From positions 26,999 through 90,998 of the forward strand of contig CAYPXO010000001.1 of the NCBI GenBank assembly GCA_964414895.1: 64,000 nt of DNA, in the 5' to 3' direction. This document shows, one piece after another, positions 1,879 through 38,085 of the stretch. The stretch's first letter is position 1. Every line of letters starts with the position of its first letter. The notes under the pieces are model-generated. The model ran no database searches, was not told the DNA's origin, and saw nothing but the letters and a program-made list of their open reading frames with translations. The position numbers and the translations under genes are program-made. This DNA is from an uncultured Pseudomonadales bacterium. GTDB lineage: Bacteria; Patescibacteriota; Microgenomatia; UBA1400; CAYNMC01.

Positions 1879-2600
1879 GAAAAAGAACGATCCTAATTTT
1901 ATTAACAGCAGCCCTGGCGATAGCGGGAATCACCGCCAAAATAACCTATGAAAAAAACCGCACACCAGCAATACAGAAGGGTGATGAGGAGACTCAGCAG
2001 CAAGCTGAACCGACCCCTACCCCTGAACCCGATCCACGCATTGAGATCGTGGCTGAGCGACTGGCTGAAGAAGGCAGCCCGCTCACTGACAAAGCTGGCG
2101 TCTTTGTTAACTGTGGGAGCGATAACGGCATCGATCCGTATCTGCTGGTTGGCATCACAAGCATTGAAAGCAGCTTCGGAAAACAGTCGTGCGGAGGGAA
2201 TGCCTGGGGCTGGGCAAACTGCAGAATTCAACATTCCTCGCTTGAAGCTGCGTGCCAGTCCGTCGCCGAAGGAATTGCAGAAAAACCTTATTACAGTCGA
2301 TACCGCCAAACAGGTCGAGTCGAGGATTTGGGAAGTGTGTATTGCCCCTCAAATTCAGGCTGCGACACGGCAAACTGGGTGGCAAAAGTTAAAGAGGTGG
2401 TTGCCGATCTTCAGGATCGGGAATTTGAAAAAGCAATGTTAGACCTAACCAAATACCTCCCAGGCGATAAGAGCAAAGAGGAAATGCAAAAGAACCTAGA
2501 GGAGCTGAAAAAGCGCCTGGAGAAAGCATCAGGCACAAACAAAGAGGTGGTCGAAATTCTAATCAGAGCCAACAAAAGGGCTTTAGAAAAACAAAAATGA
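1875..2600 (+). CDS. membrane-anchored lytic transglycosylase-like (SLT/GH23-like) protein
   Basis: N-terminal hydrophobic anchor (ILILLTAALAIAGI). LLVGITSIESSFGKQ resembles the catalytic E-S-x-F motif of SLT domains. C-terminal coiled coil. Confidence 0.35.
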   Translation: MRKRTILILLTAALAIAGITAKITYEKNRTPAIQKGDEETQQQAEPTPTPEPDPRIEIVAERLAEEGSPLTDKAGVFVNCGSDNGIDPYLLVGITSIESSFGKQSCGGNAWGWANCRIQHSSLEAACQSVAEGIAEKPYYSRYRQTGRVEDLGSVYCPSNSGCDTANWVAKVKEVVADLQDREFEKAMLDLTKYLPGDKSKEEMQKNLEELKKRLEKASGTNKEVVEILIRANKRALEKQK

Positions 2601-3121
2601 AAACCATCGAAGAAGCAAAACAATATGTATTTGACGAGGAAAATTGGACAAGGGGCTGTCGATGCTCCGTGTGCGGTCACTATGTCAGAAAATACCGCAA
2701 GACAATTTACAATGTCAGTGCCTACGCTCTGATCCTGATTTATAAACTGACCCTGAAATTAAACCCTGACGGCGGGTGGCTACACATCACTAAAGAATTC
2801 GCAAAGCACTTCGGATTGCATGCCTCTGCTTACGATTACAGCCAGCTTGAAAGATGGGGGTTGACTGAAAGAAAGAAGCCTAATCTAGAGAAAAATAAAC
2901 CGAGCAATGGCTTTTATCGCATAACCCAACTAGGAATAGATTTTGTTGAGGGTCGAGCAAAAGTCAAAAAATACCTCTGGATGTATAACGGCAAAGTCCT
3001 AGAGTGGGAAGACGAAGAAACCACACTTAAAGAAGCCCTGGGGAAAAAATTCGACTATCAGGAATTGATGGCAGATTGTCCAGCGCCAAAGTTACCAGCG
3101 CAGCAAACTCTAATCTTATGA
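2597..3121 (+). CDS. hypothetical Zn-finger protein
   Basis: CRCSVCGHY CxxC-type motif. Start overlaps the previous gene; part of the early gene string. Confidence 0.45.
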   Translation: MKTIEEAKQYVFDEENWTRGCRCSVCGHYVRKYRKTIYNVSAYALILIYKLTLKLNPDGGWLHITKEFAKHFGLHASAYDYSQLERWGLTERKKPNLEKNKPSNGFYRITQLGIDFVEGRAKVKKYLWMYNGKVLEWEDEETTLKEALGKKFDYQELMADCPAPKLPAQQTLIL

Positions 3122-4128: not shown

Positions 4129-4326
4129 GTGAAGCAAGTAGTGCGATGCGTAGGATGCAGCAAAATCGTAGGGCTTTATAAGACCTACAGCGTCCAAGTG
4201 ACAGAGACTCCGATTGTAAACGGCACACGAATGCCAGAAATAAAATATAAAGGCAGGATTTGCAAAGAATGCGCCCAGGGTGCAGGTTACAAAATCGGAA
4301 TCAAACATGAACCAAAAAAAAGCTAG
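4129..4326 (+). CDS. Zn-ribbon protein (CxxC...CxxC)
   Basis: GTG start preceded by AAAGGAGGTGAGAATCC. Motifs CVGC and CKEC. Confidence 0.45.
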   Translation: MKQVVRCVGCSKIVGLYKTYSVQVTETPIVNGTRMPEIKYKGRICKECAQGAGYKIGIKHEPKKS

Positions 4327-4459
4327 GTTGCTAAAGAAGCTGGCGAGAAGTCTGGGACTACCCTACAAGGTAATTAAAAAGCGATACCAGAGCTTTAATT
4401 CCTTACAGCGTGACGAAATGGCAAAAGAGCTAAAGCGGATTCAAAAAGCAAACCTATGA
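4307..4459 (+). CDS. small basic protein (50 aa)
   Basis: Unlisted short ORF MNQKKARLLKKLARSLGL... whose stop overlaps the next start (ATGA). Confidence 0.3.
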   Translation: MNQKKARLLKKLARSLGLPYKVIKKRYQSFNSLQRDEMAKELKRIQKANL

Positions 4460-4641
4460 AAAACACAAAACTAATCGAGCCAATACTGAGAGAAGACTAT
4501 GTCTCCCCTCACTTGAAAGAAGAAGCCCGCAAGCGGGAGATCGAACCCCTCCCGCCAGAGACAGAGGGTTTAAGTTGGGGGGAACGACTGTGGCTTTTTA
4601 TAGTGCGGGTGATTACTAAATTCTTAAGGAAATATGGTTAA
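4456..4641 (+). CDS. hypothetical protein
   Basis: 61-aa ORF translationally coupled to the following methyltransferase gene. Confidence 0.4.
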   Translation: MKNTKLIEPILREDYVSPHLKEEARKREIEPLPPETEGLSWGERLWLFIVRVITKFLRKYG

Positions 4642-5890
4642 CAAAACAGACTACCCGAAAATCGCAATAAGCACCCTGAGATTTGCCGAATACAATCCTA
4701 GGCAGATCACTAGGAGCGTGATCGAATCGCTTAAAAAATCAATGAAGCGGTTCAAGTGCGTCGTGCCGATAGTAATTAACACCTACAAAGGCAGGGGAAA
4801 TGTAGTAGTTGGTGGCGAAAAAAGAGTGCGGGCAGCAACCGAGCTAGGCTGGAAGGAAATCGAATACACCACAGTCAACATTCCCCTAGAAGACGAGAAG
4901 GCGCTAAACCTGGCATTAAACAAGATCGAAGACAAGTGGGACGATGCAAAACTGGCAGCCGTGGTGACCGACCTAGCCAAAAAGGACTTTGATTTATCAG
5001 TGACAGGATTCAACGAGGTGGAAATTAGCAACCTGCTCGACACTACAATGATGCTTAACCTCGAAGAAGAACCCTGGGACACGGAAAAAGAGCTGGCAAA
5101 AATAACCGAGCCGACCTCAAAACTCGGTGAGGTTTATCAGATCGGCGATCATCGGCTTATGTGCGGGGACGCCACCAAACCAGAGGATGTGGCGAAACTG
5201 ATGGACGGTAAGAAAGCGGACATGGTCTTTACTGACCCGCCCTACAATGTCGCTCATACCAGCAAGGAAAAGAAGGGTAAATTCCATACAGAAGAAGGCA
5301 CGATCCTTGGGGATGACCAGAGCCAGGAGGACTTCCGAGCTTTTACTCAAGCGTTTTTCAAAAACTACAATGAAATCCTAAAGCCAGGCGGGATAATTTA
5401 TGTCTGCACAGGCTACAGCTCCTACCCCCTGTTTTATTACCAGATGCTCAATGCAGGGTTTGTTTTTAGCTCGACGATAGTCTGGGTCAAACCAAGCTAT
5501 GCCATCGGTTGGGGGGATTATAAAAAGCAATACGAGCAGGTGATGCGAGGCAGGAGAAGGACTGGCAAAGCCAAAGGCGAGCCGATCCTCTACGGCTGGA
5601 GACAAGGAGAGCGCCATCAATTCGAAGGTGACAGAACCGAAAGCGATGTCTGGGAATTCCCCAGGAAGGCAATTACCGACATGGTTCACCCGACGGAAAA
5701 GCCAGAGTGGTTAATTATGAAAGCGATCAAAGGCGGATGCAGAGTCGGACAGCTAGTCGTCGATTTATTCGGCGGATCGGGAAGCACGCTGATGGCAGCA
5801 CACAAACTAAGCAGAGTCAGTTATTTAATGGAGCTAGACCCCAAGTTCTGTGATTTGATCAGAAAGAGGGCGGAAAGGTTAAAAATCTAG
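4634..5890 (+). CDS. ParB-like nuclease N-terminal domain fused to a DNA methyltransferase (DPPY motif; N6-adenine or N4-cytosine)
   Basis: N-terminus matches the ParB-N fold (GGEKRVRAATELGW). MTase motif IV is VFTDPPYN and the FGGSGST motif is present. Confidence 0.8.
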   Translation: MVNKTDYPKIAISTLRFAEYNPRQITRSVIESLKKSMKRFKCVVPIVINTYKGRGNVVVGGEKRVRAATELGWKEIEYTTVNIPLEDEKALNLALNKIEDKWDDAKLAAVVTDLAKKDFDLSVTGFNEVEISNLLDTTMMLNLEEEPWDTEKELAKITEPTSKLGEVYQIGDHRLMCGDATKPEDVAKLMDGKKADMVFTDPPYNVAHTSKEKKGKFHTEEGTILGDDQSQEDFRAFTQAFFKNYNEILKPGGIIYVCTGYSSYPLFYYQMLNAGFVFSSTIVWVKPSYAIGWGDYKKQYEQVMRGRRRTGKAKGEPILYGWRQGERHQFEGDRTESDVWEFPRKAITDMVHPTEKPEWLIMKAIKGGCRVGQLVVDLFGGSGSTLMAAHKLSRVSYLMELDPKFCDLIRKRAERLKI

Positions 5891-5970
5891 CCTTGTCGAC
5901 GCCACCAGATCGATTCTGTGGGGCGTTTGACAGGCGGGTGGGACATAGAACCACCCAAAAACAATAAAGA

Positions 5971-6132
5971 ATGTCAAAAAGTAAAAAAAGGCGCAATTTA
6001 TCAAAGCGAAGACGCAAAAAACTAAGAAAACTTAAAAGAAAACAGCAAAAAGGTATCCAAGAAGACATTAAAAAGCTGGTGATCGCCAGAATTAAAACGA
6101 TGCCAGACAATCTGAGAATTAGTATTGGCTAA
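5971..6132 (+). CDS. small highly basic protein (53 aa)
   Basis: Unlisted ORF MSKSKKRRNLSKRRRKKLRKLKRKQQKG...; possibly DNA-binding. Confidence 0.3.
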   Translation: MSKSKKRRNLSKRRRKKLRKLKRKQQKGIQEDIKKLVIARIKTMPDNLRISIG

Positions 6133-6137
6133 AAACT

Positions 6138-6767
6138 ATGGCAAAAAAACAAATAAAACCAACCAAGAAAACTGTCGACAAAAGTCCACAAGTGCCTACG
6201 GAAGATAAACCTCCCAAACTGTCGACAGAGAAAATGAAGGGCGAAACCAATCGCCACTTTTTAGCATGGTTACTTTACTGCCAAGCTGGGAGTCTTAGAA
6301 AAACTTTAGCTGTGTGGGATAAAGCACTGGGCATAGAAGGAGAAGTCGATTACAGAAAGCTAGGGAAGAAACCTTCCTTAAAAACTCTTAACAGGTGGTC
6401 AATGAAATACCGCTGGGGCGAAAGGGATGAGCTGCGGTTCGAGGAGACTCTCGCAGGTTTGAAAAAAGAAACGATCCGTATTGACAAGGAGCGCAAAGAC
6501 AGAGTCGCTCAGCTTTTCAAAATTGCAATGAACAAGAAACTCAGACAACTCAATATCCCCCAGGGAGAGGCAGTGAGCGACACCCTGCTTAATTACCTGT
6601 GGAGGATGCACCGAGTCGAAATGGGGTTGCCAACAGACTACAGCAAGCATGATGTCTACACGCCGATCAGGGAAGAAGACCAACAGCCATTGACACCAGA
6701 AGAAACTGTGCTAAGCCAAAAAATTACTCAGTTAGAAAAAGAACACAATGACAAAATCAACCAGTAA
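6138..6767 (+). CDS. putative terminase small subunit
   Basis: Called from its position immediately upstream of, and overlapping, the terminase large subunit, and from its size (209 aa); no diagnostic motif. Confidence 0.4.
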   Translation: MAKKQIKPTKKTVDKSPQVPTEDKPPKLSTEKMKGETNRHFLAWLLYCQAGSLRKTLAVWDKALGIEGEVDYRKLGKKPSLKTLNRWSMKYRWGERDELRFEETLAGLKKETIRIDKERKDRVAQLFKIAMNKKLRQLNIPQGEAVSDTLLNYLWRMHRVEMGLPTDYSKHDVYTPIREEDQQPLTPEETVLSQKITQLEKEHNDKINQ

Positions 6768-8310
6768 TAAATACCAACGATTAAATATCCTAACCTGGAT
6801 TCGGGAAAACAATATTAAGAACGAGCGTGGCGAGCCGATAGAATTCGAGCAGCACCGCTTCATGCAGGATTTATATGCCGATGTCGCCCCGATTCAGGTC
6901 GTCAGAAAAGGGTCGCAGATCGGCGCAAGTTTAATGGAAATCCTCAAGGTGCTTCATGCAGCCCGCTTCTGGGGCATCAACCAGATTTATACCCTTCCGA
7001 CCAGCGATGATGTCTTCAAATTCGTGCCAGGCAAAGTTAATCGAATCATCAGATTAAATCCCTGCATCAAGGAAGGAATCCCTCCAAAAAGTGTAGACGC
7101 CATTGAACAAAAGCAGATAGGCAAAAGCTGGCTTTACTTCAAAGGGACATTCACCGAAAGAGAAGCTATTATCTTAACCTCAGATCGCAATATTCACGAC
7201 GAGCTGGACAAGTCAAACCCAGATGTGGTGCGAGACTACCTCTCCCGTATGAGCTACTCAAAAATTAGAAGCCAGCACTACTTCAGCACGCCCACGATCC
7301 CCGACTTCGGCATTGACAAGCTATTCCAAGACTCAGACCAGAAGCACTGGCGCTTTAACTGCCCCCACTGCACCTACCGCCAGCACATGGACTGGGAGAA
7401 GAATGTCGATGAGAAGCGGGGCATTTATGTCTGCCAGAAATGCAAAAAGGAAATCACGCCAAAAAACATCAACAAATACGGCAGCTGGGAGGCACGCTAC
7501 CCAGGCAAACCAGTATCTGGCTACTGGATCAGCCAGATGAACTGCCCCTGGCGCACCGCAGCCGACCTAATCAAAGAGCGTGAAGACGCTGAAGACGACA
7601 CCTATTTTTACAATTTCATCCTGGGGCTGCCTTACCTCTCAGCCGAGCAGCGCATCCCAGCCAGCCTATTCCTGCGCAATCTGACAGAGGCAGAAGCCGA
7701 AGCAGCCGAAGACTACAATGTGATGGGCATTGACACAGGCTCAGGCTCAGGCAAAGGCAACCATGTCATCATCGGTAACCAGAAGGGAATCTTCTGGATG
7801 GGCATTTTAACCGACAAGCCAGACAAAGACCGTTGGGAGCAGATCGCCGAGCTTATAAAATTCTATGACATCAGGGTAACGATCATCGACGGACAGCCTT
7901 ACACTGTGGAAGCCCTGAGTCTAGCCAGGCAATTCCCCTACCGAGTCTACCTCTGCTGGTTCAAAGACGACCCCAAAATGCTCGAAATCGTCCGTTTTTT
8001 TGACGAAGAAGAAGGCAAGGAAAAAGACCTAGAAGACGAAATCAAAGTGCTTGCCTCAAGAACCAGAATCATCGACGACACAATAACCGCTCTCCACAAG
8101 CACGAAATCAAGTTCGCCATGAAGCCAGACAGCCCCACCTTCAAAATGCTAATCAAGCATGCCCAGACAATGTATGCCAGATCGGTGACGGATAAGTTAG
8201 AACAGGTAAAAAGAGAGTGGGCAAGCACAGGAGCAAATGACTTCTTCCTGGCGCTGATTTACTGGCACATCGGACTTAAAAAAAGAAATAAATATGAACC
8301 AAACAAATAA
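6748..8310 (+). CDS. terminase large subunit
   Basis: 520 aa. N-terminal ATPase region with Walker-A-like VRKGSQIGAS. C-terminal nuclease-like region (GIDTGSGSGKGNHVIIG; IDGQPY). C4 Zn motif CPHC...CQKC. Lies upstream of the portal gene. Confidence 0.75.
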   Translation: MTKSTSNKYQRLNILTWIRENNIKNERGEPIEFEQHRFMQDLYADVAPIQVVRKGSQIGASLMEILKVLHAARFWGINQIYTLPTSDDVFKFVPGKVNRIIRLNPCIKEGIPPKSVDAIEQKQIGKSWLYFKGTFTEREAIILTSDRNIHDELDKSNPDVVRDYLSRMSYSKIRSQHYFSTPTIPDFGIDKLFQDSDQKHWRFNCPHCTYRQHMDWEKNVDEKRGIYVCQKCKKEITPKNINKYGSWEARYPGKPVSGYWISQMNCPWRTAADLIKEREDAEDDTYFYNFILGLPYLSAEQRIPASLFLRNLTEAEAEAAEDYNVMGIDTGSGSGKGNHVIIGNQKGIFWMGILTDKPDKDRWEQIAELIKFYDIRVTIIDGQPYTVEALSLARQFPYRVYLCWFKDDPKMLEIVRFFDEEEGKEKDLEDEIKVLASRTRIIDDTITALHKHEIKFAMKPDSPTFKMLIKHAQTMYARSVTDKLEQVKREWASTGANDFFLALIYWHIGLKKRNKYEPNK

Positions 8311-8703: not shown

Positions 8704-8901
8704 ATGGTAAGTAATAAGCAAGTCAAACCAGGCAAGCTACTCAAACTAACCGAGGTTAGCAAGATGCTCAATGTTCACCCCAACACACTTCGGAAATGGG
8801 ATGAAAAAGGAATCCTCAAAGCGATCCGCTTCGGGCAGAGGCAAGACAGGCGCTACCGCAAAAAAGACATAGAAAAGTTAATTGAGAGGAGGCAGAAATG
8901 A
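8704..8901 (+). CDS. excisionase/MerR-type HTH DNA-binding protein
   Basis: KLLKLTEVSKMLNVHPNTLRKWDEKGIL matches the excisionase-family HTH pattern. Confidence 0.6.
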   Translation: MVSNKQVKPGKLLKLTEVSKMLNVHPNTLRKWDEKGILKAIRFGQRQDRRYRKKDIEKLIERRQK

Positions 8902-10082: not shown

Positions 10083-10104
10083 GGATAAACCAGCCAGGCA
10101 AAGG

Positions 10105-10130
10105 TCTAGCCCCAGAAAAAGGGGGCTAGA
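10105..10130 (+). terminator. GC-rich stem-loop (TCTAGCCCC-AGAAAAAG-GGGGCTAGA) downstream of 9267..10082
   Basis: Perfect 9-bp inverted repeat. No strong U-tract. Confidence 0.35.
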
Positions 10131-10140
10131 TCAGTTCAAT

Positions 10141-10169
10141 TTGATAAATTTTTAATAAAAGCCTATAAT
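10141..10169 (+). promoter_or_regulatory. sigma70-like promoter TTGATA-17-TATAAT driving the moron cassette
   Basis: Near-consensus hexamers with 17-bp spacing, 23 nt upstream of the 10192 start. Confidence 0.55.
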
Positions 10170-10191
10170 TCAGGCAGAATCAGGAAAACGA

Positions 10192-11181
10192 ATGAAAAGA
10201 CTATTTGAAGGCAAAACGAAACTGATTACAATTCCCCTTATAGGGATTTTATCCCTTGCATTCCTCCCCATTGCCCTAGGGCTAGGACTGGGCTGGCTGG
10301 TTTATAAAAAGGTCGGCAGTCCGAAATTAAAATATTCCCTGCTGACAGTGATCGCCCTTTTTACCCTATTCACAGGCACTGCTTGGGTCTCAGCGATAAC
10401 CTCCCCCAGCAAGCCAGAATCAAAGCAAGAGCAAACTGCACAAGCCACCCCAACCCCTGAAGCCGAAACAGCAGCTGTAGAAATGACTCAAGAACCATCA
10501 CCCACTCAGGAATCGACATCAACCACAACGACCCCCGCAAATATGCAGACCGCTAAGGTGACCAGGGTCATCGACGGCGACACAATCGATGTCTCCTTTG
10601 ACGGAAAAACAGAAAGAATTAGGATTATAGGAATCGACACACCAGAGACAGTCGACCCCAGAAAACCAGTGGAATGCTTTGGGCAAGAAGCGTCAGCAGT
10701 TGCAAAAGAACAACTTACAGACGAAACAGTGCAGCTTGAATCCGATCCAACTCAAGGTGAAAGAGACAAATACAATCGGCTCTTGAGGTATGTGTGGATG
10801 GATGACGGCACTGTTGACTTCGGCAAACTGATGATCGCCACAGGTTACGCTCACGAATATACTTACAATCTCCCCTACAAATACCAAAAAGAATATAAAC
10901 AAGCCCAGAAGGACGCAGAAGAAGGCAAAAAAGGGCTGTGGGCTGATGATGCCTGTCCTCCACCCACTGAAAAACCCGCCACCGCACCAACCCAACCATC
11001 TTCAGGGGGAGGGTCGTGCAAATACTCCTGCACCAGTCCAGACAGGGACTGCGCCGATTTTTCAACCCATGCCGAAGCACAAGCGTTTTTTGAATGTTGC
11101 GGGTTTACCGCCACCAATGACCCGATGAGGCTAGACTCAGTCGGAATTGGAAACGGCATCGCCTGCGAATCATTACCATGA
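10192..11181 (+). CDS. membrane-anchored micrococcal (SNase-like) nuclease with C-terminal Excalibur Ca-binding domain
   Basis: Two N-terminal TM helices. SNase motifs (VIDGDTIDV; RIIGIDTPE; YNRLLRYVW). The C-terminal DRDCADF...GNGIACE fits the Excalibur pattern. Confidence 0.75.
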   Translation: MKRLFEGKTKLITIPLIGILSLAFLPIALGLGLGWLVYKKVGSPKLKYSLLTVIALFTLFTGTAWVSAITSPSKPESKQEQTAQATPTPEAETAAVEMTQEPSPTQESTSTTTTPANMQTAKVTRVIDGDTIDVSFDGKTERIRIIGIDTPETVDPRKPVECFGQEASAVAKEQLTDETVQLESDPTQGERDKYNRLLRYVWMDDGTVDFGKLMIATGYAHEYTYNLPYKYQKEYKQAQKDAEEGKKGLWADDACPPPTEKPATAPTQPSSGGGSCKYSCTSPDRDCADFSTHAEAQAFFECCGFTATNDPMRLDSVGIGNGIACESLP

Positions 11182-11522
11182 AGAAACTAGCCATAGCCAT
11201 TTTTATTGCCACAATCCTCTTGATACGGGGAGTCAGCCCAGCCCTTGCTAGACAAGGATGCTGTTCTCATCACAAAGGAGTTTGCGGTTGCCATTGTTGC
11301 GACGGCACGCCCCTCTCCGCAAAGTGCGCTCCTTACTACCCAAGCTGCAACAAGGCAAGCACCAGCACCTACAAAGCCCCTCAAAAAGAGGAAAAGAAGT
11401 GGTATCAAAGTGGGTGGACATATGTGATCGGCGGGCTTGGACTCTGGATGGGAGGCGCTTGGGTAAAAGAGAAAATTGACGAAAGAAGAAAAAGAAAAGA
11501 AGAAGAAAAAAACCATGAGTAA
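11178..11522 (+). CDS. Cys-rich type-I membrane protein (signal peptide, GCCSxHxGVCGC..CCDGT motif, TM helix, basic tail)
   Basis: Signal peptide ..ALA. Eight Cys within 35 aa. TM helix WTYVIGGLGLWMGGAWV followed by a KR-rich tail. Confidence 0.55.
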   Translation: MKKLAIAIFIATILLIRGVSPALARQGCCSHHKGVCGCHCCDGTPLSAKCAPYYPSCNKASTSTYKAPQKEEKKWYQSGWTYVIGGLGLWMGGAWVKEKIDERRKRKEEEKNHE

Positions 11523-11982
11523 AAACATTGTAAAACTAGCAACAATTCTGATATTTACCCCTCTGTTTTTATTTGCGTCAACTGCAAACATAGAAGCCAG
11601 AAGGGGATGTTGCTCTTGGCATGGTGGGGTTTGTGGCTGTGATACCGATGTTGGCAGGCAAGTTTGCTGCGACGGCACATACAGCCCCAGCTGCGGATGC
11701 GCTTATATTCCTAAGACCATGCCTACGCCAATGCCGACAAAAAAACCAACTCCCACCCCCACCAAGAAACCGACACCAGAGCCTACGAAAATAAGCACTC
11801 CAACCCCTCAACCAGCCGTTCAAACAACGACTAGCGACTCAGGCAGCTCAGACGACAGCACGATAGGCTGGCTAACACTGGCAGCGCTGGGCGGGGGCGG
11901 ATACTGGTTATACAAACGAGCTAAAAATAAAAAGAAGCCAGAGGAAACAAATAACTCTGAGCCAACAAACCAAAATGGATGA
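11515..11982 (+). CDS. paralogous Cys-rich type-I membrane protein with Pro/Thr-rich linker
   Basis: Same architecture and Cys spacing (RRGCCSWHGGVCGC...CCDGTYSPSCGC), then a PT-linker, a TM helix and a basic tail. Start trimmed to the ATG at 11515. Confidence 0.55.
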   Translation: MSKNIVKLATILIFTPLFLFASTANIEARRGCCSWHGGVCGCDTDVGRQVCCDGTYSPSCGCAYIPKTMPTPMPTKKPTPTPTKKPTPEPTKISTPTPQPAVQTTTSDSGSSDDSTIGWLTLAALGGGGYWLYKRAKNKKKPEETNNSEPTNQNG

Positions 11983-12223
11983 AGAAAACAACGGCTTCGG
12001 TGGCATCATCGGAGTAATAATTTTTATCGTTATAATTTACTTTGCCTTCAAGTGGATTGGTGGCTGGGGCAAATACGAAGGCATGAGTGCAGAGGAATGG
12101 GCAGACGAAGCATATTACTGGGAAGACAGATACAATGAGTTTAGGGGGTGCGTGGAAGATTTCGACAGCATGGACATACGAGATCAGATCGACTACGGCG
12201 GGGTTTTTTATTACTGCGAATAA
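11975..12223 (+). CDS. small membrane protein
   Basis: One TM helix; last gene of the cassette. Confidence 0.4.
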   Translation: MDEENNGFGGIIGVIIFIVIIYFAFKWIGGWGKYEGMSAEEWADEAYYWEDRYNEFRGCVEDFDSMDIRDQIDYGGVFYYCE

Positions 12224-12228
12224 AGCAC

Positions 12229-12258
12229 TTGCATTTTTATTTTCAACTTTGTTAGAAT
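12229..12258 (+). promoter_or_regulatory. sigma70-like promoter (TTGCAT-18-TAGAAT) upstream of the portal gene
   Basis: Hexamers with 18-bp spacing; followed by the conserved 22-mer box and a hairpin. Confidence 0.5.
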
Positions 12259-12277
12259 GAATACAGTAAAGTAAACC

Positions 12278-12346
12278 GCCTAACGAATTGATCGGGGCTT
12301 GGGTTTCTCTATTCACAAGAGTAGGAAAACCTAAGCCCCGTTTTTA
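12278..12346 (+). terminator. conserved 22-mer GCCTAACGAATTGATCGGGGCT followed by hairpin GGGGCTTGGGTTT...AAACCTAAGCCCC and a U-tract; terminator/attenuator directly downstream of the promoter
   Basis: 13-bp stem with one G-U pair, then GTTTTTATTT. A second copy of the same architecture lies at 14296-14372. Confidence 0.5.
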
Positions 12347-12361
12347 TTTGAGGAAAAACTT

Positions 12362-14233
12362 ATGCCAAAAGTCAAAGAAGAAAAAATCACTCAAACAGCC
12401 CGCTATGATCCGCCAGAAGCCGATGAGAAATTGATCGAGAAGTGGAAAAAAAGATTTAAGCGAGCAAAAGACTTCCGTGATCCATACCAGGCGAAGTGGC
12501 TGAGACTTTATCAGCTATACCGAGCCTATCAAAATAAGAAAAACTACGCTTACAATACCCGCCTGATGCCCCCGATTGCCTTTGAAATTGTCAAAACAGT
12601 CGTCTCAAGACTGGCAACAGCAAAGCGCCAGACCAGAATTATACCCAGAGAGAAAGCCGACCTTAAATCCCCAGCCCTTGATTCCTGGGACAACCTGGTG
12701 AATTATGACTTTGACATTATAGAACTGGCAAAGAAGCTCCCCAACTGGATCGAAGCCTCCACCCTCTACGGCAACGGCATCATCAAATTGGCGTGGAAGG
12801 TGCTGACCACCACCGACGATGATGGCAAAGCAACTACCATCTATGACGACCCCAACATGAGCCTGAGCGACCTGTGGGACATCCTCCCCGCCCCTGAAAC
12901 CACCGACTTACAAGAAGACTGCCCTTGGCTCATCCACCGCATCGTCAAACCCAAAGCCAGGATTGTAAAAGAGGAAAAAGCCAGAGGTGAAGGCAAGATT
13001 TATAAGAACCTGGAATTTGTAGAGGACAAGAAAGTCGAGGATTGGAAAAAAGAGCGCTACGAAATCAATGCCAAAAAGATGTCTCAGATGGGCGGAGGGG
13101 AAAAGGAAAATGAGAGCGGAGAGAGTAAAATCCTGCCCGAAAAAAGCGAAGGCGAAAAGCAGGTAGAGATTTGGGAATGCTGGGACTGGGAGGAAGACAA
13201 ACTGGTTGTAATTATGAACCAGGAAGTCCTCACCAGAGATGATGAGAACCCTTACCTGGCAATCAATGGCGGGCGGATTTATGTTGACTTGCCAGACATG
13301 CCACTCCTCTGGGAATTCTGGGCAACAGGACACATCGAGCCAGTCGAAACCACCATCCTGGAGATTGCCGACCTCAGAAACCAGAGAATGGACGACATCA
13401 TTTTAATGCTCGACCCTGTGGTTAAAATCAGAAAAGACTCAGGCATTACTAAAAACGACATTGTCTTTGCACCAGGCGCAGTCTGGGAGCTGAGAAAAAT
13501 GACCGATGCTGTGATTGAAAGACCACCTGAAATAAGCCTCATGGGAGTAAACGAAGACAAGCTAATGCGAGACGAAATCAGCCGAACCCTGGCGCTTGGC
13601 GAGTATATGCAGGGCATGCCCCAGTCCAGCCAAGAGCCTCTGGGTAAAGTAGCAATGCTTCTAGGACAGAGCAACCTGCGCCTAAGCATGAACGCCAGCA
13701 ACATTGCAGTAGCCCTGACCCAGGTGGCAAACATTCTAATCGAAATGAACCGAGAATTTATCGATAAAGACAAACTCTATCGAGTCGTCGGCGAGGAGGT
13801 CGAATTCAAGGAATTTAAGAAAGAAGATAAAAAGGTCAAAGTCGACGCCATCGTTAAAGTTGACCCAGTAATTCCCCCAGACCAGACAGCCAGAATCAAC
13901 CAGATTTTGATGCTTTACGACAAGCTGATCGCCCAGGACAAACCCGATCCCAAAGACCCAGAGGACATCAAACGCTGGCTCAAGAGAAAAAGAACCCTGC
14001 AGAAGATGCTCCTGGAAGAGCTAGACCTTGATCAGTATATCGAGCTTTTGTTAGGGAAAGATGAAGAAGAAGGCAAAGAGACGACAGAAACACCCGCCGT
14101 TGCCCCTGTGTCACCCGCTAAAGAGGCTTTGCCAGCGCAGTCGGCTGGGTATAATGCCCCCGCAAACCAAGCAGGCGCAGGAATCAGAAGGGTGCTGCAG
14201 CAAATTCCTTTGCTCGGTAGAATGGTGGGATAA
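12362..14233 (+). CDS. portal protein
   Basis: 623-aa protein in the canonical position after terminase and before the head module. Acidic C-terminal tail. The assignment rests on size and position rather than on a diagnostic motif. Confidence 0.6.
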   Translation: MPKVKEEKITQTARYDPPEADEKLIEKWKKRFKRAKDFRDPYQAKWLRLYQLYRAYQNKKNYAYNTRLMPPIAFEIVKTVVSRLATAKRQTRIIPREKADLKSPALDSWDNLVNYDFDIIELAKKLPNWIEASTLYGNGIIKLAWKVLTTTDDDGKATTIYDDPNMSLSDLWDILPAPETTDLQEDCPWLIHRIVKPKARIVKEEKARGEGKIYKNLEFVEDKKVEDWKKERYEINAKKMSQMGGGEKENESGESKILPEKSEGEKQVEIWECWDWEEDKLVVIMNQEVLTRDDENPYLAINGGRIYVDLPDMPLLWEFWATGHIEPVETTILEIADLRNQRMDDIILMLDPVVKIRKDSGITKNDIVFAPGAVWELRKMTDAVIERPPEISLMGVNEDKLMRDEISRTLALGEYMQGMPQSSQEPLGKVAMLLGQSNLRLSMNASNIAVALTQVANILIEMNREFIDKDKLYRVVGEEVEFKEFKKEDKKVKVDAIVKVDPVIPPDQTARINQILMLYDKLIAQDKPDPKDPEDIKRWLKRKRTLQKMLLEELDLDQYIELLLGKDEEEGKETTETPAVAPVSPAKEALPAQSAGYNAPANQAGAGIRRVLQQIPLLGRMVG

Positions 14234-14241
14234 AGGACGAC

Positions 14242-14271
14242 TTGACAAAGGTTAGAAGACTTTATTACAAT
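14242..14271 (+). promoter_or_regulatory. sigma70-like promoter (TTGACA-18-TACAAT) upstream of the head module
   Basis: Consensus -35 hexamer and a good -10 hexamer. Confidence 0.5.
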
Positions 14272-14295
14272 GAAAACAGTTAAATAGAAGACAAA

Positions 14296-14372
14296 GCCTA
14301 ACGAATTGATCGGGGCTAAGACTTCTAGACATACGCATTGAGCGTGTGCTTAGGAGTTTTAGCCCCTTTTTT
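14296..14372 (+). terminator. second copy of the conserved 22-mer GCCTAACGAATTGATCGGGGCT with hairpin (GGGGCTAAGAC...GTTTTAGCCCC) and T6 tract
   Basis: The 22-mer is identical to 12278-12299. GC stem followed by TTTTTT, then a CAGGAGGTGA SD. Confidence 0.5.
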
Positions 14373-14394
14373 GTTGGTCAGGAGGTGAAAAAAT

Positions 14395-14829
14395 ATGCCT
14401 AAACAACTAGAACAAAACTTCGCAAAAGCAAACACAATCCCCATTCAATTAGTCGCTGATCCAGGAGACATCAACGGAGCAGCAATCGACACTTACGACT
14501 CAGGTGGACATCCCCAATTTGATACCGCTCTAGCAATGATTGAGATCGGTTTAATCACAGGAACACCGACAAAGGTGGAAATTTCAGTTGAGGAAGACGA
14601 CGACGCAGCATTCGGCGGGGCAACCATAGCGGAAGGCGGGGCAATCGTGGAAGTGACAGCCCAGCACAGCTATTTAATGCAGATTAAAAGGAAAAAGAGA
14701 TACCTGAGAGTGGTTGTAGACACGACAGCAGGAACGACACCGACAGTTCAGGCTTTTGCAGCATTTATTTTGTTCAACGCCCAGAAGCCGTTCCCATGCT
14801 TGACGGCAGCTGATGTTGACAACAGCTAA
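14395..14829 (+). CDS. head-module hypothetical protein
   Basis: 144-aa acidic ORF with a strong SD. Confidence 0.5.
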   Translation: MPKQLEQNFAKANTIPIQLVADPGDINGAAIDTYDSGGHPQFDTALAMIEIGLITGTPTKVEISVEEDDDAAFGGATIAEGGAIVEVTAQHSYLMQIKRKKRYLRVVVDTTAGTTPTVQAFAAFILFNAQKPFPCLTAADVDNS

Positions 14830-15178
14830 AAAAACTATGCCAAACGAAGCGAATCAAACACCAGCAGGTGCTGCACCTCCAGCAGAGGGAGCAGCCCCAG
14901 CAGCGAGCTTAAAACAAGCTCCCGCCGAAAATAAGCAGGCAATTTGGGCGAAGGTTGAAGCTGTGTATAACGCAGCGAAAAAGGCATATTTATCAGGAGG
15001 ATCGACCTTAGCCGATGTCCTGGACAGCCTTACGGCAACACTAATGGACATTCACGCAGCCGAAACCCAAGCAATGGGGGGATTAGGAGCAGGACAGCCA
15101 GAGATGGAATTACCAGCGCCTCCGCCTCCAACACCCGCAGCACCAGCTGCAGGGGAGGAAAAAGCGCCAGTAGCTTAA
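14813..15178 (+). CDS. Ala/Pro-rich hypothetical protein
   Basis: 121-aa low-complexity ORF (PAPAA...). Confidence 0.4.
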   Translation: MLTTAKKTMPNEANQTPAGAAPPAEGAAPAASLKQAPAENKQAIWAKVEAVYNAAKKAYLSGGSTLADVLDSLTATLMDIHAAETQAMGGLGAGQPEMELPAPPPPTPAAPAAGEEKAPVA

Positions 15179-15182
15179 AACT

Positions 15183-15437
15183 ATGACAACCGACATCGAT
15201 GAGAAGCTAGACAAAGGCAATAAAGTTTGGGAGATGACCCAGACTGAAGGCTGGCAGATCATTAAAAGTCAAGTTGAAGACGAAGCACGGATCGAAACCG
15301 ATGAGCTTCTTGACTGTCCAGAGGACGAGGTCAAAGAACATCGTGGGGCAATCAAGGCTTATAGGAAAGTCCTAAGCATGGTTGAGACTGCCGAGAAAGA
15401 AAAACAAGAGGCAGCCAAAGCCGTCCGAAAGGAATAG
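15183..15437 (+). CDS. hypothetical protein
   Basis: 84-aa acidic ORF. Confidence 0.4.
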   Translation: MTTDIDEKLDKGNKVWEMTQTEGWQIIKSQVEDEARIETDELLDCPEDEVKEHRGAIKAYRKVLSMVETAEKEKQEAAKAVRKE

Positions 15438-15439
15438 AC

Positions 15440-15766
15440 ATGACAGACGAAAAAGAAAATAAAAAACCAGAAGAAGGCAAGGAAAACACAGAAGGCAATG
15501 TGGTGCTTGCCAAGTTTAAAAAAGATCAGAAAAAAGAAAATCGTCACAAGCGGTGGCGGGTAGTCGAAGATTCCGTCTCCGCAGCCAGAAAAGCCTATAC
15601 AGGAGGCTACGGAGAACCTGACAAAGACGCAAAACTTGTTAGTTTTGAAACCGCCGTCAAGGACTTAGTCGAAGTCCTAGAAAAAGTCCTTGCTGGTGAA
15701 GTCAAATTAGGAGGTCTAGGCGAAGACCAGGGAGGCATTGACCTTCCTGCCGAAGCCAGCGAATAA
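15440..15766 (+). CDS. hypothetical protein
   Basis: 108-aa ORF. Confidence 0.4.
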   Translation: MTDEKENKKPEEGKENTEGNVVLAKFKKDQKKENRHKRWRVVEDSVSAARKAYTGGYGEPDKDAKLVSFETAVKDLVEVLEKVLAGEVKLGGLGEDQGGIDLPAEASE

Positions 15767-15771
15767 AAACT

Positions 15772-15987
15772 ATGCCATTCGGAATCAAAGGTAAAACCAA
15801 AAAATGGGAGGAAAAGACCAAGACAGGGCAAAAAGTAGATGCCAGGATCGAAAAGTGTGTCAAAGGTCGCATGGCTGACCCAGACTTTAAGCCCCAAAAG
15901 GGCAGGACAAAAAAAGAATCAGCCATAGCAGTATGCAAATCAGCAATTACTAGGTCAAAAGAATTTAGCAAGCAATTATCAAAGTGA
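15772..15987 (+). CDS. hypothetical basic protein
   Basis: 71-aa Lys-rich ORF. Confidence 0.4.
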   Translation: MPFGIKGKTKKWEEKTKTGQKVDARIEKCVKGRMADPDFKPQKGRTKKESAIAVCKSAITRSKEFSKQLSK

Positions 15988-15988
15988 G

Positions 15989-16882
15989 GTGATGACTATG
16001 CCAGACGAACCAAACAAAGAACAAGCCGAACTCGAAAAGCTATTAAACGAACCGCCTGAAGACGAGGAGGAAGGTAAAGACGAGCCAGGGAAGGGCGAGG
16101 AAGGCAAGGATAAAGGTGGAGAAGGTGGCGAAGGCACGGAGGGCGAAGAAGGCGGAGAAGAAGGCTCAGAGCCAGGAGTGACTAAAATCAAGCCTGAAGG
16201 TTCTGAGGAGGGTGAAGAAGGGGAAGAAGGCAAGGATAAAGGTAAAAAAAGCGGGGGCGAGGAGGACGAATTTAAAGGCAAAAGTCGTGAAGAAGTCATC
16301 GAAATGCTAAAAGAGCAGCGAAAGAAAGCTGCCAAGCCCGACGAAAAAAGTAAAGGCAAAGAGGGCGAAGAAGGTGCTGAGGAAGGTGAGGAGGGCAAAG
16401 AACCGACAGTCCCGACAGCAGAAGAACTGCAAAAAATGACACCCTCAGATTTTGCAAAGTGGGTCTTAGCACGCATTGACGAAGGGGTAAAAAGGACTAT
16501 CGAAAGCCAGGATAAAGTCAGAGGCGCTGTCAAAAAAGAGATCGCAGATGCCAAAAAAGAGCATAACTTAGGCGATCCCGACTACAGAAAAATGGTCTTA
16601 GCAATTATCGAGGCATCCAGCGCTAAAGGCACTGTAATGCCACTTAAAGACGCTTGCAAGCAGGTAGACGCCTTCTTAGGCAAGCACAAAGGAAAAACTA
16701 AAGGTGAATCTGAAGAATTATCAGATGAGGAAAAGAGCCGACTCAAAAAAGCAAAGGCTCAAGTAGAGAGCGGAGCGGGCGCTCCGACTAAACCCGAAGG
16801 CTCGGATGCCGAGACAAAACGCATCCAGAAAGCTCTCGGAGGTAGCGGTCAAACAAGCCCTCTAGGAGGGTTAGGAATATAA
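15989..16882 (+). CDS. putative scaffolding protein (highly acidic, EEGEEGKDKG repeats)
   Basis: Extremely acidic, repetitive, helical protein immediately upstream of the major capsid gene. Confidence 0.5.
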   Translation: MMTMPDEPNKEQAELEKLLNEPPEDEEEGKDEPGKGEEGKDKGGEGGEGTEGEEGGEEGSEPGVTKIKPEGSEEGEEGEEGKDKGKKSGGEEDEFKGKSREEVIEMLKEQRKKAAKPDEKSKGKEGEEGAEEGEEGKEPTVPTAEELQKMTPSDFAKWVLARIDEGVKRTIESQDKVRGAVKKEIADAKKEHNLGDPDYRKMVLAIIEASSAKGTVMPLKDACKQVDAFLGKHKGKTKGESEELSDEEKSRLKKAKAQVESGAGAPTKPEGSDAETKRIQKALGGSGQTSPLGGLGI

Positions 16883-16930
16883 ATAACCCCCTCCTAAATC
16901 ATTAAACAGAAAGGGGGTGAATAAAAAAAT

Positions 16931-18115
16931 ATGCCATCAGCAACAGGAATCAGAGGAACAGCAACACCAGACGACGCATCAGTGGTCATGCCGACCAGGA
17001 AATATGATGTAGCCGATGTTATTTCGCTATTGGATGTCAACCGATATCCGCTTTTAGCGATCTTAACTAACGCAGGAAAAGACCCAGTGACTAAGCAAGG
17101 AAAAGCCATGAAAAAGGTCGAGACTCTCGACCCGCAATTTAAGTGGTTTGAGGACGAATTCGGAAAAAGACAATTGACAGGCTCAGGCACAGTCGACCCA
17201 GACGGAGGCAACTTAACCGTCACAGCGCAAACGCAATACTTGCAGGTAGGAGATGTGGTTTTGGTAGCACTACAGAAATGGGTATTCGAAGTGACCGCAA
17301 TTACCGACGCCAATGTGGTTGTCGTAGGGGCAGAGCTAGGAGGGGCAACGGGAGCAGCAGCATCAGCAGTAGGCGATGTTTGGTTGATCGGGAATGTGAA
17401 CGAGGAAGGTGCGGGCTTGCGAGCCATCAAATCGACCCTTGCAGCCGAGGTTTACAACTACTGTCAAATTTTCAGAACGCCAATCGGTATTACGGAGACA
17501 GCCAAAAATACCAAGATGTGGACTAAGGAAAATGACTTTGACTACCAGAGACGCAAGAAAGGGATCGAACACATGGTTGACATTGAAAGAGCATTCTTAT
17601 TCGGAAAGAGAGGAATTGTCACCACAGGAACGCATCCCAAGAGATTTTCAGCAGGAATTTTGAGCAGAATCAGCACTTACGCTACTGCCAGTGTGGACAC
17701 GGAATCAGAGTTTGAGACATGGCTAGAAAGCTTATTCGCACACGGAAATGTGGAGAAATACCTCTTTGCAGCAGCCTCGGTGATCTCGATGATCAACCAG
17801 TGGGCAAAAGGGAAACTCCAAGTAATGAGCAAAGACAAGACCTACGGACTCGCCATCGTCACTTACGAATCGCCACACGGAACGCTGCACATGATCAAGC
17901 ATCCGCTATTGACTGGAACGACCTATGGAAACTACGCAGTAGGATTAGACATGGAGACGCTGACATACCGCTACCTCAGCAACCGAGACACTAAACTCTT
18001 GACCAACCGACAAGCACGAGGGGAAGACAGCCAAGTAGACGAATACTTGAGCGAAGTTGGATTGCAAATGGAGCAGGAAAAAAGACACGCCATCATGAGC
18101 ATGGGTGCGCTCTAA
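16931..18115 (+). CDS. major capsid protein
   Basis: 394-aa protein following the scaffold, with a strong terminator-like structure downstream. Size and position are typical of an HK97-fold capsid protein; no motif check was possible. Confidence 0.6.
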   Translation: MPSATGIRGTATPDDASVVMPTRKYDVADVISLLDVNRYPLLAILTNAGKDPVTKQGKAMKKVETLDPQFKWFEDEFGKRQLTGSGTVDPDGGNLTVTAQTQYLQVGDVVLVALQKWVFEVTAITDANVVVVGAELGGATGAAASAVGDVWLIGNVNEEGAGLRAIKSTLAAEVYNYCQIFRTPIGITETAKNTKMWTKENDFDYQRRKKGIEHMVDIERAFLFGKRGIVTTGTHPKRFSAGILSRISTYATASVDTESEFETWLESLFAHGNVEKYLFAAASVISMINQWAKGKLQVMSKDKTYGLAIVTYESPHGTLHMIKHPLLTGTTYGNYAVGLDMETLTYRYLSNRDTKLLTNRQARGEDSQVDEYLSEVGLQMEQEKRHAIMSMGAL

Positions 18116-18285
18116 AGTTAACAACTGAAAGGATTGATATGCCTAAACGGATTGAAGCTAGGAAGTCACTACACACTTTCTTACTCAGTGTAGTCGCCTG
18201 AGCAGGGGTGAGCGTAATCATCCCTGCAAACTAAAAATCAAATGATTTTATTTAAAAAAACTAAAACGAAAAGAGGTGACAAACG

Positions 18286-37925: not shown

Positions 37926-38029
37926 AGCCCTTTACGGGCAGGATTTAGATTGATTATATCAGAAAAACAACTACCACTTGACATCGTTGACTTTTTGTGA
38001 TTGACTGAAAATAGCAACATTTACATTCA

Positions 38030-38085
38030 GGAGTTAGCTGCCCCTTGAAGGGGAAGATTAGAAGCAAGAAACCTTCGAGAACTCC
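38030..38085. other. putative prophage-host attachment junction inside comM
   Basis: Both the GC-content shift and the divergence of the comM reading frame from the conserved ...LFLDELSEF continuation occur here. Confidence 0.35.

Follow-up and report, generated by a model that had tools for sequence, protein, structure and literature searches.

The portal gene and the head operon of a prophage in a Patescibacteria/CPR host are each preceded by a compact unit, and together these units appear to be a previously undescribed RNA switch deciding on the synthesis of particle proteins. With a probability of about 0.55, the units are promoter-proximal attenuators, that is, terminator/antiterminator RNA switches that gate read-through into the portal gene and the head operon. 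The prophage occupies about 1-37.9 kb of the window, by which we mean the whole 64-kb stretch of DNA that was analysed. The observed anatomy is as follows.

12229 to 12258, + strand: promoter of unit 1, with -35 TTGCAT (12229-12234), -10 TAGAAT (12253-12258), a TGn extended -10 and an 18-nt spacer.
12278 to 12298, + strand: box of unit 1, a candidate antiterminator hairpin with P1 GCCU/GGGC, an AA bulge, P1b CGA/UCG and the loop AUUGA.
12293 to 12349, + strand: intrinsic terminator of unit 1, with a stem-loop (12293-12340) and a U-tract (12341-12349); CGGGGC is common to terminator and box.
12362 to 14233, + strand: portal gene, downstream of unit 1, with PHROG portal/adaptor matches.
14242 to 14271, + strand: promoter of unit 2, with TTGACA (14242-14247), TACAAT (14266-14271), an 18-nt spacer and 11 of 12 consensus matches.
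14296 to 14316, + strand: box of unit 2, a candidate antiterminator hairpin of the same sequence as the box of unit 1.
14312 to 14375, + strand: intrinsic terminator of unit 2, with a stem-loop (14312-14366) and a U-tract (14367-14375).
14395 to 18115, + strand: head operon, downstream of unit 2, from its first gene (14395-14829, phrog_5707) to the major capsid protein gene (16931-18115, SU10_MCP in Pfam).

The twin layout of promoter, box, hairpin, U-tract and gene had been described at both sites in a first-pass annotation, and it is borne out by the sequence, by a model search and by folding. Transcription is predicted to start at about 12265 in unit 1 and about 14278 in unit 2, and the gap between the -10 element and the box is 19 and 24 nt, respectively (about 18-24 nt). 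The distance from U-tract to SD, given earlier as 15-25 nt, is in fact 0-5 nt: SD GAGGA is found at 12350, ahead of the portal ATG at 12362, and SD AGGAGGTG at 14380, ahead of the head-operon ATG at 14395. The start codon of the portal gene or head operon comes 12-28 nt past the end of the hairpin and its U-tract. The stretch from the terminator to the start codon is too short for a promoter, so portal and head transcripts all have to pass through the terminator; in the late region, no other strong + strand terminator or consensus promoter was found.

The 22-mer GCCTAACGAATTGATCGGGGCT occurs in exactly two copies, both on the + strand (12278-12299 and 14296-14317), with none expected by chance and no further match in the window at up to three mismatches. 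A covariance model, run with filters off over the 64 kb, found the two units alone (44.1 and 40.6 bits), the next-best match scoring 12.4 bits inside a probable uncalled small ORF from about 27259. The hairpins have folding energies of -35.1 and -40.7 kcal/mol (z = -6.1 and -6.7), which none of 200 shuffles equalled. A third, weaker box had been proposed at 18150-18240. The site, at 18141, fits a loose pattern only; it has no model match, no promoter and no U-tract terminator, and it is not conserved in relatives. It is the start of a 20-aa ORF adjoining a different conserved two-hairpin element.

Among related CPR phages, about 70 distinct sequences have the unit, and each of these matches precedes the portal gene or the head operon. 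These loci were gathered via portal relatives, with CPR phage relatives coming from three collections. About 1 Mb of related DNA gave 85-90 model matches (26.8-45.6 bits), again all before the portal gene or head operon, and nothing else was reported there up to E-value cut-offs of 0.01 and 1e-4. The carriers are assigned to Microgenomates-, Parcubacteria- and Saccharibacteria-type MAGs; their contigs come from groundwater and sediment, the Hainich and Rifle sets being examples, and include complete IMG/VR contigs of 55-62 kb and complete MAG prophages such as CP055307.1. The earlier suggestion to look for the 22-mer in other phages was thus rewarded among related CPR phages, and the INPHARED phage genomes held no match to the region. 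A promoter-like element (score of at least 9) lies upstream of 45 of the 66 distinct units, as against 2 of 54 control windows, and a type 2 hairpin precedes the head operon in relatives too. In one relative (L059), the upstream genes are divergent and the unit is still present, so that its own promoter is needed.

It is highly improbable that the hairpins are ordinary terminators of the preceding genes, placed after re-initiation promoters and carrying a passively duplicated box without any switch. The moron operon (10141-12223) is indeed followed by no terminator but terminator 1, and the portal gene by none but terminator 2. However, each promoter lies upstream of its terminator rather than downstream, the box is conserved with compensatory changes at portal identities down to 46%, and the unit persists where the upstream genes are divergent.

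Read from its sequence and that of its relatives, the box is a small, bulged candidate antiterminator hairpin that is mutually exclusive with the terminator. Its 5' GCCU pairs with the GGGC at the start of the terminator stem; as this GGGC is needed both for P1 and for the base of that stem, the two structures exclude each other. The first-pass annotation was right, for both units, that the 3' end of the 22-mer is the 5' base of the terminator hairpin. Pairing of P1/P1b is observed in 426 of 426 cells (71 distinct sequences) with no disruptions, and the changes at these positions are G-C to A-U in two sequences, C-G to U-A in two and a wobble in three. The covariation of P1 consists of four double changes across two base pairs in a stem of only 4 bp, and P1b is invariant and so carries no covariation signal. 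The P1/P1b covariation score was reached in 0 of 500 shuffles, and slid controls were paired in 30-66% of cells. The terminator 3' arm varies in parallel, with GGGAC/GUCCC in L131 and GGGGU/ACCCC in L013, and across relatives the terminator stem has compensatory changes at 9 of 20 pairs.

The box is found in several forms. Forms B and C are a single bulged hairpin, and form A, in Parcubacteria-type relatives, is a hairpin with an inserted stem. This stem, P2, has compensatory changes in five of its six pairs; with it the box measures about 45 nt, compared with 22 nt in the window. RNAalifold predicts P1 independently. A scan of a viral collection with a loose form A pattern fetched 120 loci, 115 of them without the full form A motif and chance-like; six full-motif matches comprised five real units before portal genes and one GC-rich chance match. 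Across divergent phages and host lineages, the conserved core GCCU-RA-CG ... CGGGGC is nearly invariant. A distant clade has no box, and small UACG-loop hairpins still lie over the terminator 5' arm. L015, L020 and L022 are box-negative relatives.

The energies of the two folds are far apart. The 21-nt box hairpin of unit 1 has -4.9 kcal/mol alone and -6.3 kcal/mol with two flanking nucleotides on each side. When P1/P1b is forced, the base of the terminator is truncated, and the fold reaches -21.4 versus -33.1 kcal/mol in unit 1 and -29.3 versus -39.1 kcal/mol in unit 2. An extension of the antiterminator into the 5' leader, whose 5' segment would pair with the terminator arm, was suggested by RNAfold but rejected, as cognate and non-cognate combinations were indistinguishable (-5.2 versus -4.9 kcal/mol). 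Attenuation by a leader peptide was discarded too: the sole ORF starts at a TTG in the variable loop and is non-conserved.

These folds suggest how the switch may operate. The promoters, which look host-type, would start the leader, and the small conserved hairpin (P1 GCCU/GGGC, a purine-A bulge and P1b CG/CG) would form first. Unassisted, the terminator, being 10-12 kcal/mol more stable, should win. Termination by default would yield leader RNAs of about 83 and 96 nt, the sizes expected from the predicted starts and terminators and in line with the short leader RNAs anticipated in the first-pass annotation; the virion genes would be off, and read-through from the upstream moron operon would be blocked as well. 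A trans-acting factor would clamp the bulged hairpin, the terminator stem would lose 5-6 bp and end 6 nt before the U-tract, and RNA polymerase would continue. We infer that the default state is off, that the action is local rather than processive, and that the factor is most likely an RNA-binding protein produced in lytic growth. Known RNA-binding antiterminator domains were not found among the scanned phage ORFs.

Could the short transcripts themselves be the functional products? It is very unlikely that the units are stand-alone sRNA genes, encoding two sibling trans-acting sRNAs of about 83 and 96 nt with a common 5' seed, the late genes being expressed through leaky read-through. Promoter and strong terminator do delimit a discrete short transcript in each unit, and the conserved sequence is at the 5' end and identical in both. 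Short leader RNAs are also expected under any attenuation model. However, the conserved part, split in two by a variable loop and paired with the terminator arm, offers no contiguous single-stranded seed. Moreover, the units always lie directly 5' of portal/head genes that have no other promoter, and complementary targets in the window number 6 against 3.5 expected, two of the six being the antisense strands of the boxes themselves.

The parallel with lambda PR'-tR' that had been drawn holds in logic, with a promoter, a terminator and late genes reached by read-through. Lambda PR'-qut-tR' with Q, the Q systems of 82 and 21, and AlpA at PalpB-tB likewise combine a host-type promoter, an intrinsic terminator within about 100 nt and late genes, and in lambda PR'-tR' and its kin a short leader RNA is also expected by default, with late genes expressed by antitermination only. 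The proposal of a Q-type (qut) system, on the other hand, is not supported. Q and AlpA require a promoter binding element and a -10-like pause element; they are loaded from a DNA site within the promoter during a sigma-dependent pause, and their action is processive (PMC9371919). Here, by contrast, the conserved element behaves as RNA; its distance from the promoter varies, it shares sequence with the terminator stem, and every terminator has its copy. Pfam and PHROG sequence searches with about 40 phage ORFs gave no Q, N or AlpA-like family.

Individual candidates for such a protein fared no better. The Zn-finger ORFs 2597..3121 and 4129..4326, suggested earlier as Q-like, are not conserved beside the units in relatives; for ORF 2597-3121, the AF2 model (pLDDT 35) was unusable for a fold search and a PDB sequence search was empty. 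An Arg/Lys-rich 53-aa ORF (5971-6132), considered as an N-like protein, is absent from relatives. A 65-aa HTH_17 protein is too small for the architecture of AlpA, which in P. aeruginosa includes an N-terminal ring and makes contacts through residues with numbers as high as 142 (PMC9371919).

Processive antitermination would make the box a loading site for terminator resistance over the whole operon, through a nut- or put-like RNA or a Q/AlpA-like protein at the promoter, and its overlap with the terminator incidental. We consider this unlikely, although several observations agree with it. The order of promoter, conserved element and terminator is that of lambda PR'-qut-tR' and HK022 PL-putL-tL1, 23 loci have a small HTH_17 gene in synteny with the unit, and -10-like hexamers occur in the initially transcribed region of both units, namely TACAGT and TAAAGT in the first and AACAGT in the second. 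In addition, form A relatives have one box but two serial terminator-like hairpins, the second of them box-less and located before the portal ATG; this second hairpin would still stop transcription if the switch acted only locally, which counts against our preferred reading. However, the hexamers sit in AT-rich sequence and are not conserved across clades, and the conserved box itself is not -10-like. The promoter spacers TTTTATTTTCAACTTTGT and AAGGTTAGAAGACTTTAT have just ACTTT beside the -10 in common, are otherwise different and vary between clades; a 5-6 bp site of the Q/AlpA type may lie within them. The distance from -10 to box ranges from 17 to 28 nt among the units. P1 always coincides with the first four nucleotides of the terminator and covaries with them, which a pure loading site would not need, and each terminator in the window has its own box. 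The lack of a Q, N or AlpA family match in these searches and the size of the 65-aa HTH protein, too small for an AlpA/Q nozzle, point in the same direction.

Like our units, the RNA-based systems HK022 put and lambda N-nut have two copies of a conserved RNA element per phage, one behind each of two promoters and ahead of the first terminator. At about 70 nt, put folds into two stem-loops and acts in cis on RNA polymerase with no need for phage proteins; nut consists of boxA and a GNRA-like boxB. Both act processively, without terminator overlap. Unlike nut, the leaders have no boxA (CGCUCUUA-like) and their hairpin differs from boxB; unlike put, they have a single bulged hairpin, or in form A one with an inserted stem.

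A local mechanism of the kind we prefer has its counterpart in the RAT leaders of BglG, SacY and LicT. There too, the 3' strand of a small, imperfect and bulged hairpin doubles as the beginning of the terminator 5' arm. Given the much greater stability of the terminator, read-through takes a bound protein, and action is local, at each terminator. Lambda PR'-tR' logic with a BglG/RAT-like implementation is the most likely description of the units. Within the clade of the window, genomes differ in their boxes (UUGA to UUUA; bulge A to G), and both boxes of a genome carry the change, which hints at a genome-specific reader. The likeness to RAT has its limits: the Rfam family bglG-cis-reg scores 25.8 bits against a gathering threshold of 80 bits, with a match on the terminator part only, no CAT/PRD proteins were found among the scanned phage ORFs, and the context is phage virion genes in CPR hosts instead of sugar operons.

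Another possibility is that the box is a minimal aptamer, riboswitch-like, with a small molecule or ion that stabilises P1 and sets read-through into the virion genes. As in the small-aptamer riboswitches preQ1-I and the HMP-PP thiS motif, there is an invariant junction, a variable peripheral stem, here covarying, and a P1 that competes with the stem of the expression-platform terminator. That the core hardly varies between very divergent phages and host lineages, and that the search for protein candidates was empty, also agrees with an aptamer. We nevertheless regard it as quite unlikely. The interior of the window form is a 13-nt bulged hairpin, smaller than any validated aptamer known to us. 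No Rfam family was matched at gathering or permissive thresholds, the riboswitches guanidine-II and -III included, whose likeness had been considered through their ACGR motifs. The element is tied exclusively to phage structural genes, standing before portal/head genes and never before metabolic or transport genes, and the concerted change of the boxes of one genome fits a co-evolving macromolecular reader better.

The near-invariance of the core down to 46% portal identity could nonetheless reflect a host component or small ligand rather than a phage protein. We offer as speculation, itself unlikely, that the core is a minimal sensor of a host-derived signal (a metabolite, a second messenger, RNA polymerase or another conserved host component) and not a phage-protein site, with which phages of CPR bacteria would couple virion transcription to the state of their metabolically minimal hosts. 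In this case, the neighbouring LOOT RNA of Parcubacteria-type relatives, which has the same 5' UGCCUAAAC start, could compete for the partner. The conserved loop of the LOOT RNA, UCGUCA, complements UGACGG of the box, with 10 bp in L075. A direct role of this RNA as trans partner was rejected, as a loop change in L090 is uncompensated and the window has no LOOT.

Because Patescibacteria/CPR hosts are uncultured, gene regulation in them and in their phages has hardly been explored. A compact RNA switch backed by covariation provides a testable handle on the timing of virion synthesis and on its silence in lysogens, and the unit is a candidate new RNA family for Rfam. The switch would extend the lambda paradigm of a constitutive promoter plus terminator to a local implementation by RNA structure in a phage. 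Knowing its ligand would bring to light either a phage antiterminator protein of a new class or a sensor RNA of unusually small size.

The prophage extends from position 1 to ~37.9 kb of the window (46-49% GC); the remainder is host DNA (32-41% GC) with comM-like, miaA, miaB, RNase Y and recA genes. The prophage carries a replication initiator, a ParB-methylase, tail genes and the features listed here, in which unit 1 is the leader of the portal gene and unit 2 that of the head operon.

6138-8310: terS and terL
12229 (TTGCAT) to 12253-12258 (TAGAAT), plus strand: predicted promoter of unit 1 by sequence, 18-nt spacer with TGn
12278-12299 and 14296-14317, plus strand: box, the 22-mer GCCTAACGAATTGATCGGGGCT, exact match
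12293-12340, plus strand: stem-loop of unit 1, then UUUUUAUUU, GAGGA and ATG at 12362
12362-14233: portal gene
14242 (TTGACA) to 14266-14271 (TACAAT), plus strand: predicted promoter of unit 2 by sequence, 18-nt spacer
14312-14366, plus strand: stem-loop of unit 2, then UUUUUUGUU, AGGAGGUG and ATG at 14395
16931-18115: SU10-type major capsid gene
36837-37925, minus strand: integrase

No match to the region was found in the INPHARED phage collection. Genomic relatives of the portal come almost entirely from Patescibacteria/CPR MAGs (Woesebacteria, Daviesbacteria, Gottesmanbacteria, Roizmanbacteria, Shapirobacteria, Parcubacteria, Saccharibacteria, Doudnabacteria), and those under other labels are small TPA MAGs. 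At the right end of the prophage (36837-39011), the tyrosine integrase adjoins a partial comM-like gene (317 aa, N-terminal ChlI domain and part of the Mg-chelatase domain only), which suggests integration into comM. Directly before terS lies a 53-aa, extremely Arg/Lys-rich ORF (5971-6132; MSKSKKRRNLSKRRRKKLRKLKRKQQ...); it is absent from the relatives, where the methylase gene abuts terS.

The layout of promoter, identical 22-mer and hairpin described in the first-pass annotation is present in both units, as judged from exact matches and from folding against shuffles. The -10 element and the box are separated by 19 nt in unit 1 and 24 nt in unit 2, and the hairpins fold at -35.1 and -40.7 kcal/mol, respectively (z ~ -6 against shuffled controls). 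The box is identical in the two units, whereas the stem sequences differ. No further copy with up to 3 mismatches exists in the 64-kb window (0 expected by chance), and a covariance model run with filters off found exactly two sites (44.1 and 40.6 bits), the next-best match (12.4 bits) lying within an apparent uncalled small ORF. A weaker third box had also been proposed after the capsid gene, at 18150-18240. That site, GCCTAAACGGATTGAAGC at 18141, opens a 20-aa ORF (MPKRIEARKSLHTFLLSVVA); relatives do not conserve its 5' part and the model does not detect it, so that it does not belong with the other two.

The post-capsid region (18116-18285) holds a separate, conserved two-hairpin element (CACUACACACUUUCUUACUCAGUGUAG and CAGGGGUGAGCGUAAUCAUCCCUG), with three compensatory pairs across nine relatives. 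It overlaps the conserved 20-aa ORF (18139-18201; ..RKSLHTFLLSVVA*). One pair has changed from A-U to G-C, which leaves the encoded residue unaltered on one side and replaces V by A on the other, and this favours selection at the RNA level.

Related loci were drawn from IMG/VR, species-representative genomes and metagenomes. In ~1 Mb of this DNA the model gave 85-90 matches (26.8-45.6 bits), all located 65-300 nt upstream of the portal start or upstream of the head operon, and no other match was reported up to E-value cut-offs of 0.01 and 1e-4. Microgenomates-type relatives have two units per genome, as in the window, at times with inserted genes between them. A promoter-like element lies upstream of 45 of the 66 distinct units, compared with 2 of 54 control windows, and the -10 and the box are 17-28 nt apart. 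In one locus (L059) the genes upstream are divergent, so the unit would require its own predicted promoter. A 62-65-aa HTH_17/MerR-like protein (window 8704-8901; L059 7580-7768, minus strand) is kept in 23 related loci. In one subgroup its gene is divergent from and adjacent to unit 1, whose promoter there has a weak -35 (conserved ACTAGC) and a -10 of TATAGT, suggesting an extra activator layer.

Comparison of these loci identifies the box as an RNA structure. Its conserved core, GCCU-RA-CG ... (U/A)CGGGGC, flanks a variable middle, which is four free nucleotides in form C (the window type), a GC-AAA-GC mini-hairpin in form B and a 5-7 bp hairpin with compensatory changes in 5 of 6 pairs in form A (Parcubacteria-type). 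The box GCCU pairs with GGGC at the start of the terminator stem (P1), next to an inner CG/CG pairing (P1b), and all 426 cells in 71 distinct sequences hold standard pairs, compared with only 30-66% in slid registers. P1 changes from G-C to A-U in two sequences, from C-G to U-A in two and to wobble in three; the covariation thus amounts to four double changes, P1b being invariant and carrying no signal, and none of 500 shuffles reached the observed score. RNAalifold predicted the same P1 independently on form A. The terminator stem itself stays paired, with compensatory changes at 9 of its 20 pairs, and changes in GGGGC are matched in the terminator 3' arm (L013, L131, L089 and the second copy of L016). 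Since three strands covary, this is the signature of a terminator/antiterminator pair. When P1/P1b is enforced, the terminator hairpin is truncated, ending 6 nt short of the U-tract, at a cost of 10-12 kcal/mol relative to the terminator fold. Upstream of the portal gene, a more distant clade (L018/L176, L023, L172, L174, L175) has no GCCURACG box but carries small hairpins, one or two in number, whose stems covary and whose tetraloops are UACG/CACG. These still reach across the 5' arm of the leader terminator, and the design principle of the switch therefore appears to outlive the box sequence.

The terminator-to-start-codon gap is only 12-28 nt in both units, so portal and head mRNA would always come from read-through. 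The predicted antiterminator is weak: its folding energy is -4.9 to -8 kcal/mol in forms B and C, varying with the flanks, and about -15 to -16 kcal/mol in form A. The upper terminator stem would form while the last 5 nt of its 3' arm have yet to be transcribed. For these reasons we infer from folding models that termination is the default state and that read-through would occur when a factor clamps the bulged box hairpin. Short GC helices with a purine bulge are typical protein sites (MS2/PP7 operators, TAR, RAT). Within a genome of the window's clade the two boxes have the same sequence, and a change in one between genomes is shared by the other (UUGA to UUUA; bulge A to G), a pattern which fits a genome-encoded reader, the alternative being gene conversion between the two boxes.

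The first-pass annotation had proposed a Q-type processive antitermination or attenuation switch. Loading of a Q/AlpA-type factor at the promoter depends on a binding element embedded in the promoter and on a -10-like pause element (PMC9371919). The two promoters share only ACTTT in their spacers, where a site of 5-6 bp may still be present, and the -10-like hexamers are AT-rich and non-conserved. The phage ORFs searched gave no protein of the Q, N or AlpA families, which argues against Q-type loading. Processive antitermination gains some support from form A leaders, in which another terminator-like hairpin, this one lacking a box, precedes the ATG (GAGCCGAG..CUCGGCU, its U-tract running into the start codon). 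It is part of ~130 nt of further conserved structure that separates the portal ATG from the first terminator (L075 7876-7980 and the equivalent positions of other form A loci) and that also includes GAGGCUUCGGCCUC, which has a UUCG loop. The conservation pattern would also be compatible with a riboswitch; against this stand the very small size of the window form and the lack of any matching Rfam class. Trans-acting sRNAs are possible as by-products; as the primary role they are disfavoured by the bipartite, paired box and its fixed position in cis.

Other elements adjoin the leaders in relatives. One is the LOOT RNA (Rfam RF03000), described to our knowledge only from metagenomes. In Parcubacteria-type relatives its gene directly precedes the portal leader, so LOOT would be a CPR-phage RNA (L075 7521-7645, L131 308-437; form A/B relatives have 13 distinct copies); the window has none. 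The 5' end of LOOT, UGCCUAAAC, resembles the 5' half of the box. LOOT also has a conserved loop, UCGUCA, that is complementary to the box UGACGG, with one loop change uncompensated. Upstream of LOOT, L075 carries a cassette resembling a diversity-generating retroelement (4421-7356). Its reverse transcriptase lies on the minus strand and is accompanied by an Avd-like four-helix protein and a target gene; an A-rich template copy repeats the C-terminal NWFD..YYGSASAF segment of the target. Moreover, AAAGGTCGA recurs directly after stop codons of portal, capsid and other genes in form A/B relatives (L011-L023, L070-L092 intergenic regions), ~25-35 nt upstream of start codons without SD, and could be a phage-specific promoter, processing signal or translation signal; in the window, AAAGGACGA (14232-14240) lies immediately 3' of the portal stop.

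Leader terminator/antiterminators are a well-known kind of element. An Rfam search found no family matching this one, and targeted full-text literature searches found no description of it; a large survey of phage structured RNAs lists candidates upstream of GP20 genes, with nothing by which to equate them with the box motif. What is new in this family is its core sequence, its restriction to CPR-phage virion operons and its proposed use as a late-gene gate. The logic would be that of lambda PR'-tR', in a local, RAT-like implementation. On the phage plus strand, strong consensus promoters occur only at 10141, 12229 and 14242, and no strong terminators besides those of units 1 and 2 were found in the late region. 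The first promoter belongs to a moron-like operon between terminase and portal (10083-12223; terminator-like hairpin 10103-10132, promoter TTGATA-17-TATAAT at 10141-10169), whose products are a secreted, signal-anchored homologue of staphylococcal nuclease (10192-11181) and three small proteins of Cys-rich or membrane type, and whose sole downstream terminator is that of unit 1. In the lysogen, the unit 1 terminator would shield the portal gene from the moron operon, and that of unit 2 would keep portal read-through out of the head genes.
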